From a virus (lineage: Duplodnaviria; Heunggongvirae; Uroviricota; Caudoviricetes), in IMG/VR virus record IMGVR_UViG_2695420685_000008: a stretch of DNA of 5,039 nt; one strand, given 5' to 3'. Shown here one piece after another: positions 3,701 through 4,943 of the stretch (position 1 is the stretch's first letter; each line of letters opens with the position of its first letter). Below the pieces are notes generated by a model. The model saw nothing but the letters and a program-made list of their open reading frames with translations. It was not told the DNA's origin and did not search any database. The position numbers and the translations under genes were made by a program.

Positions 3701-3967
3701 TACCCCATTTTTATGGGGAAGTTGCCCACCATACAGTACTGGTAATCCAGTGGTAGGACTCGTTGACCTGCTGAGTGAATCCGTTACATCCCCATAACTC
3801 TGAACGCCAATCTGCCCCAGCATACTTGTTGCAACAAGGCTTGCAGCACCTGCCGCAGCCCCCCAGCCAATCGCGGCTAATGCCGTACCGCCAGTGAAGT
3901 AAACCGCCAAAGCGACAATGACTGCCGTAATTATTGCTCCAAAGAAGCCCCCTAAACTTTTCCCCAT
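764..3967 (-). CDS. Central tail fibre / tip attachment protein J-like (host specificity protein), with an N-terminal gpI-like domain
   Basis: 1067-aa ORF with ATG at 3967..3965 and TAA at 766..764. aa 259-282 (YGMG...YCDQ, nt ~3110..3193) match the conserved lambda gpJ N-terminal signature (RYGMGKRLG...YCDQSV). aa ~500-800 contain three fibronectin-III-like modules (e.g. [28 protein letters not shown]...[12 protein letters not shown]). aa ~930-975 ([14 protein letters not shown]...[21 protein letters not shown]) resemble lambda J [44 protein letters not shown]. aa 1-105 are Gly/Ala-rich and hydrophobic with LPVLYGG, like the lambda gpI C-terminal domain. Candidate Shine-Dalgarno AAGGAA at 3982..3977. 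Confidence 0.9.
932..1042 (-). repeat. In-frame short tandem repeats encoding a repeated (A/I)-x-N-A-(K/S)-I peptide near the J C-terminus
   Basis: The 13-nt string caattttcgcatt occurs at 940..952 and again at 1000..1012 on the plus strand, with related copies between (gcattggtaat, gcattaatact, gcattggcaat). Reverse-complemented these encode [29 protein letters not shown] at J aa ~982-1010. Confidence 0.6.
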
Positions 3968-4356
3968 TCCTTCTGTTTCCTTACTCTAAAATATCTTCCC
4001 TGTATTGGTTTTGGGTGTAATTCAAAGCCATCATGGCTTTCATTCACCCCAAGTACTCGACCTGATACAACCACTGCCATAATTAAGGGGTTATCGGGAT
4101 CTAACCAGATATCTCCGTCTATAAAGTGTTGTACCTCATCACAGTACTGTTCAACTATTTGACCTGTATGATCCCATCCTTCTTTTTTAAGACCTGCTAT
4201 CCCCTCTTTAATGCTCGTATATTGGCGATTTGCAAGGGTACTGCCAGTGAATAGGTCAATAATGCGGAGTACAATCAAATTGCAATCGTTATCACCATAC
4301 TTATAGGGATTGTCGATTGAGTACTGAATAATCTTAATTAATTCATTATGCATCAT
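3952..4356 (-). CDS. Small tail assembly protein, putative NlpC/P60-like cysteine peptidase (gpK-like), about 134 aa
   Basis: ORF track gives 3952..4368 from a GTG; I prefer the ATG at 4356..4354, which overlaps the L-like stop as ATGA and has a GGAG 6 nt upstream. [13 protein letters not shown] fits the NlpC/P60 catalytic-cysteine motif (Y-x-[WY]-G...D-C-x-[GL]-[LI]-[VI]), and a GDIWL element follows about 60 residues later. The canonical His after that element is not obvious, and there is no HxH JAB/MPN motif. Position between L and J matches lambda gpK. Confidence 0.5.
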
Positions 4357-4943
4357 TTGTATCTCCACGTTTGATCCTGATTCACCTGTCCTAATAAACT
4401 AAAGTATTCATCCCCTTTATAGAGAGATTGATATACTGAATTGGCAGCAATTAGTGGTGGCTGTCTGTCCAGCTTCTTATAAATGCTATTCACGTAAACT
4501 GTCATTTCATTCGTTTTTTCATTTGGATCGGCTACTGCCTGAATGTAATCAACAAATCCTGAGAACATCAGCATGGAGTACAATACAGTACTGTTATAGG
4601 GATTCAGGATAACGAGTGTAATATTCATCTGTGCATCTTTAAGGAAGCCCCCTAAAGCAAGTGCTCTTACACTCGTATTCACATTACTAATTTTGAAGTT
4701 AATCGCATCGTTGTTGATCCCCTTCTGTTCGCTGAAAGAAGGCAATGAACCACTAATGATATCGGGAAAACTAATGTACTGGTTGCCATTCAGATCAATA
4801 TCAATAAGTGAATCAGTCCAGTGAAAACCATTTGTACCTTTCGGGAGTACATCAAAACAGGTAACATGCACACCTAAACTCATTACATCCATGACACTGA
4901 GGCGTGTTTTAGTCGTGCCACGAACTAAGGAAGGTGCGAACAA
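4353..4943 (-). CDS. Minor tail protein L-like (tail tip complex); start codon uncertain
   Basis: 196-aa ORF. The segment DLNGNQYISFPDIISGSLPSFSEQKGINNDAINFKISNV aligns by eye with lambda gpL W-QGRQYQPYPIQGSGFELNGKGTSTRPTLTVSN, at a similar distance from the N-terminus. Position directly upstream of the K-like and J-like genes matches lambda order. The ORF-track start at 4943 is a TTG with a poor Shine-Dalgarno; in-frame ATGs at 4892..4890 and 4883..4881 are alternatives. Stop TGA at 4355..4353. Confidence 0.7.
   Translation of the reverse strand: MFAPSLVRGTTKTRLSVMDVMSLGVHVTCFDVLPKGTNGFHWTDSLIDIDLNGNQYISFPDIISGSLPSFSEQKGINNDAINFKISNVNTSVRALALGGFLKDAQMNITLVILNPYNSTVLYSMLMFSGFVDYIQAVADPNEKTNEMTVYVNSIYKKLDRQPPLIAANSVYQSLYKGDEYFSLLGQVNQDQTWRYK
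4363..4366 (-). promoter_or_regulatory. Shine-Dalgarno (GGAG) for the K-like gene, inside the 3' end of the L-like gene
   Basis: Minus-strand sequence GTGGAGATACAAATGATG: GGAG sits 6 nt upstream of the ATG at 4356..4354, which overlaps the L-like TGA stop (ATGA). Confidence 0.45.

Follow-up and report, generated by a model that had tools for sequence, protein, structure and literature searches.

What does a small protein with a peptidase-like fold do when it occupies the slot of gene K in phage lambda yet lacks the histidines of a peptidase? The question is raised by a stretch of 5,039 nucleotides from a tailed-phage record (Caudoviricetes; IMG/VR record IMGVR_UViG_2695420685_000008), referred to here as the window, in which all sizeable genes are on the minus strand and a short open reading frame (ORF) at 3952-4368 separates a hub/L-like gene from a J-like gene. 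A first-pass annotation, made from the sequence alone, had described the product of this ORF as a K-like protein reduced to one NlpC/P60-like domain with an atypical histidine region, and as a possibly inactive assembly factor. The analysis presented here supports that interpretation. The protein is a member of the DUF6950 family with an NlpC/P60 (papain-like) fold, a distant homologue of the C40 half of lambda gpK and of the g14-type peptidase of gene transfer agents (GTAs), and to judge from the alignments the canonical Cys-His-His triad is absent from it and from most of its family. We infer that it is probably a tail-tip assembly factor that works without canonical papain-type catalysis.

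Membership in DUF6950 is established by profile search. The window protein (residues are numbered throughout as in its 138-residue form) matches the Pfam family DUF6950 (PF22262) with 41.7 bits and an E-value of 1.5e-10, the gathering cut-off being 27 bits, and residues 6-128 cover positions 6-133 of the 134 in the profile. It also matches phrog_2134, a family with no function assigned, and gives no match to the Pfam NLPC_P60 profile (PF00877) at E <= 1. An exhaustive HMMER search returned only 53 cluster representatives, of which 49 were aligned; all 49 match DUF6950 and all are single-domain proteins of 123-151 residues. PF00877 gives weak matches in only five of these relatives (best E 0.0023), with one match to CHAP and one to PPPDE, and NCBIfam yielded no family for the window protein or for the 49 relatives. 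With DUF6950/PHROG 2134 the window protein shares a full-length hidden Markov model (HMM) match, a stand-alone size within the family range of about 125-150 residues, the single domain, the Asp-Cys and Gly-Asp pairs, the lack of a canonical histidine, and the position directly upstream of a gene of the J/megatron type. It is nevertheless divergent when set against the DUF6950 members of cultured phages, which score 134-159 bits, and the subfamily of enterobacterial prophages in which it falls has a conserved histidine (His112) and a motif of its own.

The check proposed at first pass, a profile comparison with NlpC/P60 families, points to that fold through the matches to LytE and MepS in the PDB and the comparison with gpK. 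An AlphaFold2 (AF2) model of the window protein built with 22 homologues (predicted local distance difference test, pLDDT, 91; predicted template modelling score, pTM, 0.86) has four helices and then six strands. Helix 29-41 begins with Cys29, and the model shows the papain-like alpha+beta arrangement of a nucleophile at a helix N-terminus packed on an antiparallel sheet. Foldseek comparison with the PDB reached an E-value of only about 0.07, but the same families were top-ranked, and in a Foldseek-type comparison with viral models the best matches were DUF6950 proteins (for example from Acinetobacter phage Loki), and CHAP and NlpC/P60 proteins ranked next. The 49-member profile run against PDB sequences gave 22 sub-threshold matches, 15 of them NlpC/P60 endopeptidases, and its matches include LytE, SagA, MepS, CwlO and RipA. 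In hhalign the DUF6950 profile aligned with a gpK profile at a probability of 89.7% and an E-value of 1.9e-6 over 90 columns, which correspond to residues 106-199 of the 247 in gpK, that is to its NlpC/P60 domain; the gpK profile is shallow (about two effective sequences, Neff) because only close gpK relatives, of at least 70% identity, were recovered. An hhalign comparison of the close-homologue alignment with the single lambda K sequence was not significant (probability 0.2%), and phmmer with the window protein against PDB sequences gave chance matches only. The agreement of the Pfam and PHROG matches, the AF2 model and the profile comparisons shows DUF6950 to be a diverged family of the NlpC/P60 fold that shares ancestry with the C40 half of gpK, and the description of the protein as K-like and minimal was well founded.

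The alignments to LytE, MepS, gpK and RDJL Phi1 gp83 are mutually consistent for Cys29, Gly85-Asp86, Ile96 and Val108. The gene and the positions within it are as follows.

3952-4368, minus strand: DUF6950-family gene in the K slot (ORF list, Pfam PF22262, phrog_2134, RefSeq, dN/dS)
4353-4366, minus strand: translational-coupling junction, with GGAG at 4366-4363 and ATG at 4356-4354 overlapping the upstream stop codon TGA at 4355-4353 (from the sequence)
4282-4287, minus strand: Asp28-Cys29, with Cys29 (4282-4284) at the NlpC/P60 nucleophile position (conservation, alignment to LytE and gpK)
4102-4116, minus strand: Gly85-Asp86-Ile-Trp-Leu, equivalent of the 'GDhhhF' strand (alignment, conservation)
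4081-4083, minus strand: Ile96 at the position of the canonical catalytic histidine (HMM and hhalign alignments)
4045-4047, minus strand: Val108 at the third triad position, which is histidine in MepS, LytE and gpK (alignments)
4033-4035, minus strand: His112, specific to the subfamily, in the loop after strand 104-108 (conservation among close homologues)

The cysteine motif noticed at first pass is of the (G)xDC type, and its Cys29 aligns with the catalytic cysteines of LytE and gpK. The Asp28-Cys29 pair is invariant, both in the 49 family representatives and in 65 close homologues. The GDIWL element is likewise where it had been placed; it aligns with GDFVFF in LytE, GDLVLF in MepS and GDVLL in gpK, and its Gly85 and Asp86 are kept in 48 and 43 of the 49 representatives, respectively. 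The site of the catalytic histidine does read IMAVVVSG, with Ile96 at the critical position and Val108 at the third, so that neither a canonical histidine nor a third polar triad residue (His, Asn, Gln or Glu) is found in the window protein. This atypical region is real and is a trait of the family: histidine is found in the canonical column in only eight of the 49 members, and the third-triad column is hydrophobic or, in seven members, Glu (Val or Ile in 64 of the 65 close homologues). Histidine occurs only further on, as had been remarked, at His112, in the hairpin loop that follows the strand whose last residue would normally be the third of the triad. It is present in 60 of the 65 close homologues, the other five having histidines at 110 and 113, and family-wide its column holds histidine in only six of 49, a gap, Asp or Asn in most, the loop being shorter in many. 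The loss of both catalytic histidines with retention of the cysteine makes a tail-tip assembly helper more likely than a canonical enzyme.

The gene that encodes this protein is, as first described, the sole ORF between its neighbours, a 196-residue ORF (4353-4943) and the J-like ORF (764-3967), the latter overlapping its stop codon by 16 nucleotides. A GTG start at 4368 gives 138 residues and the ATG at 4356-4354 gives 134. The shorter form is the more likely since this ATG overlaps the stop codon of the upstream gene (ATGA) and has GGAG 7 nucleotides upstream, and the RefSeq protein WP_053895447.1 ('DUF6950 family protein', 134 residues, coding sequence of 405 nucleotides) agrees with the ATG start. 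Ratios of non-synonymous to synonymous substitution (dN/dS) of 0.06-0.24 against 13 relatives indicate purifying selection, and this together with 57 homologues at 50-99% identity marks a real gene and not a chance ORF.

Relatives of the gene are embedded in a constant module composed of a tape measure protein (about 735 residues), a distal tail protein (about 185), a 207-residue protein, the DUF6950 protein (about 134) and J (about 1067-1100). This order is found in most of 70 IMG/VR contigs with a relative, where the module genes overlap by a few bases through overlapping stop and start codons, and in intact prophages portal, capsid and tail-tube genes precede this module. The idea that the window protein is a lambda-type K whose N-terminus was lost through prophage decay is ruled out, because a single-domain form of 125-146 residues, with overlapping codons, is present in intact prophages and in most of the 70 contigs, and is under purifying selection.

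Beyond prophages, a tblastn search of the window protein against 50,697 cultured-phage records gave no match. A distant family member (P0074) matches 275 cultured-phage records, and at least four carry a DUF6950 homologue in the same slot. These homologues include gp47 of Mesorhizobium phage vB_MseS-P1, annotated 'peptidase' and encoded between hub and megatron, ORF20 of Yersinia phage PY54, directly before J, and the Seuratvirus 'putative peptidase' SA80RD_19, all three of which match DUF6950 with E-values of 1e-39 to 1e-47. A homologue in an rV5-like myovirus is labelled 'tail assembly protein', and the presence of the gene in rV5-like myoviruses means that the family is not restricted to siphophages. 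In Escherichia phage rV5_ev168 (Vequintavirus) the homologue, at 4986-5405, is upstream of a 1279-residue 'tail fiber protein' and a baseplate gene; its frame is interrupted there, with a coding sequence of only 88 residues annotated and a tblastn match in two pieces. Several 'Campylobacter phage' records of about 135-143 kb (MG065682.1, MG065662.1 and MG065654.1 among them) do not differ from rV5-like Escherichia phages in tblastn identity or match coordinates, which suggests that these records are mislabelled or come from an unexpected host.

The family is already catalogued in Pfam, PHROGs and RefSeq, and some members are labelled 'peptidase'. Other DUF6950 proteins (for example P0017, P0023, P0028, P0041 and P0054) are named 'ornithine carbamoyltransferase' in NCBI records; this looks like a propagated misannotation, as neither the Pfam matches nor the modelled fold lend it any support. 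A 2006 paper (PMC1779556) had remarked on I-J fusions and on K-slot proteins whose sole domain is NlpC/P60. Our literature searches found no account of a family-wide loss of both histidines with an invariant cysteine, no usable catalytic or mutational data on gpK, and no usable virion proteomics of Seuratvirus/CAjan.

When the known occupants of the position between hub and J/megatron are compared, three types emerge: the lambda type, with a JAB domain joined to NlpC/P60 and accompanied by gpI; the GTA type, with a canonical NlpC/P60 domain; and the DUF6950 type, in which only the cysteine is left. The first-pass statement that gpK combines JAB and NlpC/P60 domains is correct. The lambda K sequence that was retrieved contains Prok-JAB and NLPC_P60 domains with the triad intact, and its gene is followed by gpI (a ubiquitin-like domain, Ubl, a Gly-rich linker and TAPI-C) and then by J. 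The window protein has in common with lambda gpK and with PA0639, its homologue in the F-pyocin, the position between hub (L) and J, a homologous NlpC/P60 domain, the Asp-Cys cysteine, the Gly-Asp strand and, likely, a role in tip assembly. It differs from gpK in having Ile and Val in place of the two catalytic histidines (those of NHAAIY and LLHH in gpK), in having no JAB domain, and in having no partner gpI with a Ubl. JAB had been said to be missing here, and the 138-residue protein indeed shows no Prok-JAB/MPN match in Pfam and no HxH-x7-S-xxD motif.

In the GTA type, RcGTA g14, RDJL Phi1 gp83 and R4C gp15 likewise consist of a single NlpC/P60-fold domain of about 150 residues, encoded between a g13-like hub and a g15-like megatron, again with a hydrophobic N-terminus on the megatron/J protein and without JAB or gpI. 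However, RDJL Phi1 gp83 matches PF00877 with an E-value of 4e-10 and retains an intact Cys-His-His triad, whereas the window protein fails PF00877 and lacks both histidines, and reports of peptidoglycan degradation concern RcGTA g14 but none of the DUF6950 proteins. Membership in the GTA g14 family is rejected on the grounds that gp83 is a canonical PF00877 protein with the full triad. In its own record RDJL Phi1 gp83 (6523-6972) is annotated only as 'minor tail protein', although it is a canonical PF00877 protein in the g14 slot. The bacterial NlpC/P60 DL-endopeptidases (MepS/Spr, LytE, CwlO, SagA, and RipA/RipB) also differ: the window protein has no signal peptide or cell-wall-binding domains, lacks the His-His part of the triad, and belongs to a phage tail morphogenesis context.

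Two features of the gene downstream of the K slot are as follows.

764-3967, minus strand: J/megatron-like central tail protein of 1067 residues (Phage_Tail_Tip, fn3 and Phage-tail_3 domains; phrog_31 'central tail fiber J')
3728-3967, minus strand: N-terminal segment of J of about 80 residues, Gly/Ala-rich and hydrophobic, then LPVLYG, resembling lambda gpI residues 95-194 (Smith-Waterman)

The Smith-Waterman score between this segment and lambda gpI is 77, compared with 37 +/- 6.6 in 1000 shuffles, none of which reached 77. Residue 95 of gpI directly follows its ubiquitin-like domain, and the likeness is to the part that forms the plug, without the Ubl; in lambda, gpI residues 135-223 are the plug in the lumen of the tip (PMC10721106). 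The hydrophobic N-terminus is conserved in relatives of this J, and similar N-termini are found in PY54 J, the Seuratvirus fibre, the vB_MseS-P1 megatron and RDJL Phi1 gp84. The lineage has no separate I gene and no Ubl domain, and its J starts with a segment resembling the C-terminal part of gpI (gpI-C). On this sequence likeness J seems to incorporate the plug function by fusion, in the manner of the GTA megatron proteins. JAB and Ubl have been proposed to form a functional unit (PMC1779556), and their joint absence here fits a functional pair that was lost together or was never present.

There is published precedent for a K-slot protein that is needed for assembly yet goes undetected in the particle. 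In lambda, gpK is required for tail assembly and was not found in virions by mass spectrometry (PMC10721106, PMC12617516), and deletion of PA0639 results in tip-less tubes, PA0639 itself being absent from particles (bioRxiv 10.64898/2026.02.24.707460). In virions of vB_MseS-P1, 15 proteins were detected by mass spectrometry, the 11 from the head-tail cluster being g3-9, g11-13 and g15 (PMC11409702); the g14 slot, which holds the DUF6950 protein gp47, is outside the listed virion proteins. By analogy with gpK and PA0639, the DUF6950 protein would act during formation of the hub-J complex that initiates the tail tip. Its former substrate groove would probably bind a peptide segment of a partner; hydrolysis by a canonical Cys-His-His triad would not take place, and the protein is unlikely to be a stoichiometric part of the virion. 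The earlier phrase 'possibly inactive assembly factor' was an inference, and in this form we favour it with moderate confidence.

Several observations weigh against an assembly role of this kind. A pure scaffold would not be expected to keep an invariant cysteine, which hints at some chemistry and is the main fact that a pseudo-enzyme leaves unexplained. A relocated Cys29-His112 dyad is possible, given that His112 is near-invariant in the subfamily and sits in a loop near the active-site end. RcGTA g14, which occupies the equivalent slot and is needed for tails, breaks down peptidoglycan and may be located in the tail lumen (PMC7296036). Failure of mass spectrometry to detect a small protein, possibly present in a single copy, is weak evidence of its absence from the virion. 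The likeness of J to gpI-C rests on a low-complexity region, and when the J N-terminus was compared with lambda gpI by BLASTP with composition correction, the E-value was 0.48. Finally, a full-text literature search for the name DUF6950 returned no papers.

The protein could be an active cysteine peptidase with a non-canonical pair, which would process a tail protein; Cys29 would be paired with His112 or with a different base, for instance an acidic residue or a histidine contributed by a partner. We regard this as unlikely, and equally so the more specific suggestion that the substrate is the tape measure protein or the N-terminus of J, cleaved during assembly. In its favour are the invariant Asp-Cys pair in all 49 and 65 sequences, and His112 in 60 of 65 close homologues, with histidines at 110 and 113 in the other five; the eight of 49 members that keep the canonical histidine could form a Cys-His dyad. 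Moreover, lambda gpH is proteolytically matured after tail assembly (PMC12617516). Against these points, the family as a whole has no conserved histidine or alternative base. Most members show a gap, Asp or Asn in the His112 column, many have a shorter loop, a hydrophobic residue sits at the third triad site, and no substrate is known. The proposal made for RcGTA g14 and R4C gp15, that of a low-copy peptidoglycan hydrolase carried in the inner tail and ejected to open the cell wall, is quite improbable for the DUF6950 protein in spite of the shared slot. The GTA-type comparison speaks against it, as RDJL Phi1 gp83 belongs to PF00877 proper and has its triad intact while the window protein fails that profile and lacks both histidines, and so does the absence of vB_MseS-P1 gp47, in the g14 slot, from the listed virion proteins. 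These phages also carry a separate lysozyme gene, though the lysozyme serves lysis. Most remote of all is the notion that the NlpC/P60 likeness is convergent or spurious and that DUF6950 is an unrelated small alpha+beta protein. It draws on the fact that no single-sequence search was significant (Pfam NLPC_P60, phmmer against the PDB, hhalign against lambda K) and on the Foldseek E-value near 0.07, and it is opposed by the agreement of the profile and model comparisons described above.

A tail-tip assembly factor without canonical catalysis, the role we prefer, can be taken further, though only tentatively. It is possible, though doubtful, that the K-slot job in long-tailed phages needs no papain-type catalysis in general and that the cysteine does something else in tail-tip nucleation. 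Here, the cysteine might capture the N-terminal plug of J or megatron, through thiol-based chemistry or chemistry completed by a partner, or it might form a transient covalent intermediate. The family, which is widespread in siphophages of Enterobacteria, Vibrio, Pseudomonas and Alphaproteobacteria and also occurs in rV5-like myophages, would then have retained the groove and the invariant Asp-Cys pair while giving up both histidines. Were it true that no catalysis is needed, this would be the first concrete handle on the function of lambda gpK. The filling of the slot in many phages by a cysteine-only NlpC/P60 fold amounts to a natural experiment. Two predictions follow: the assembly role of the K slot should be separable from canonical Cys-His-His hydrolysis, and JAB should be needed only when gpI carries a ubiquitin-like domain. 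Annotators also gain a more informative label than 'DUF6950' or the 'ornithine carbamoyltransferase' that has been copied between records.

The remaining features of the window concern the state of the element in which the gene is found.

4353-4923, minus strand (ORF 4353-4943, 196 residues): hub/L-like gene with its 5' end cut by IS5 (phrog_2048 'tail protein', IS5 match)
465-770, minus strand: small ORF (ORF list)
109-456, minus strand: small ORF of 115 residues (ORF list, phrog_4524)
4924-5039, no strand assigned: end of an IS5 insertion sequence (IS) element (99% match to IS5 in the phage P1 and phage 434 records)
1-126, no strand assigned: end of an IS100 (IS21-family) element (100% match to IS100 copies)

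The upstream neighbour had been called L, and as an occupant of the hub/L-like slot that description stands, but the gene is not intact. Comparison with a homologue reveals that the first 17 codons of the intact 207-residue protein (MDESILTNATLLKYWKL...) have been replaced by IS5-derived sequence, which supplies the first six residues of the ORF, and its TTG 'start' is an artefact. A Pfam search with this ORF gave no match, Phage_tail_L included, and phrog_2048 'tail protein' was matched. With an IS100 end on the left and an IS5 end on the right, the tail genes of the window are a fragment of an IS-eroded prophage. Among complete E. coli genomes the window DNA is found only in strain 14EC007, in an IS-riddled prophage remnant between mipA and yeaG. 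Since the upstream tail operon was removed by IS5 and the downstream end was cut by IS100, no tail could be made from the window, and the DUF6950 gene, though intact, survives here only as a relic of a dead prophage.

The same element, placed between mipA and yeaG and adjoining a serine recombinase, is present in two genera, in E. coli 14EC007 (about 15200-30900) and in Kosakonia cowanii; IS insertions are present in both, and no head genes were seen in the stretch examined. At the IS100 end of the window, the match of the 115-residue ORF at 109-456 to phrog_4524 stops after the first half of that profile (positions 1-123 of 230), and relatives carry a DUF8377 protein of 215-218 residues at this position; the ORF appears to have been cut by the IS100 insertion.

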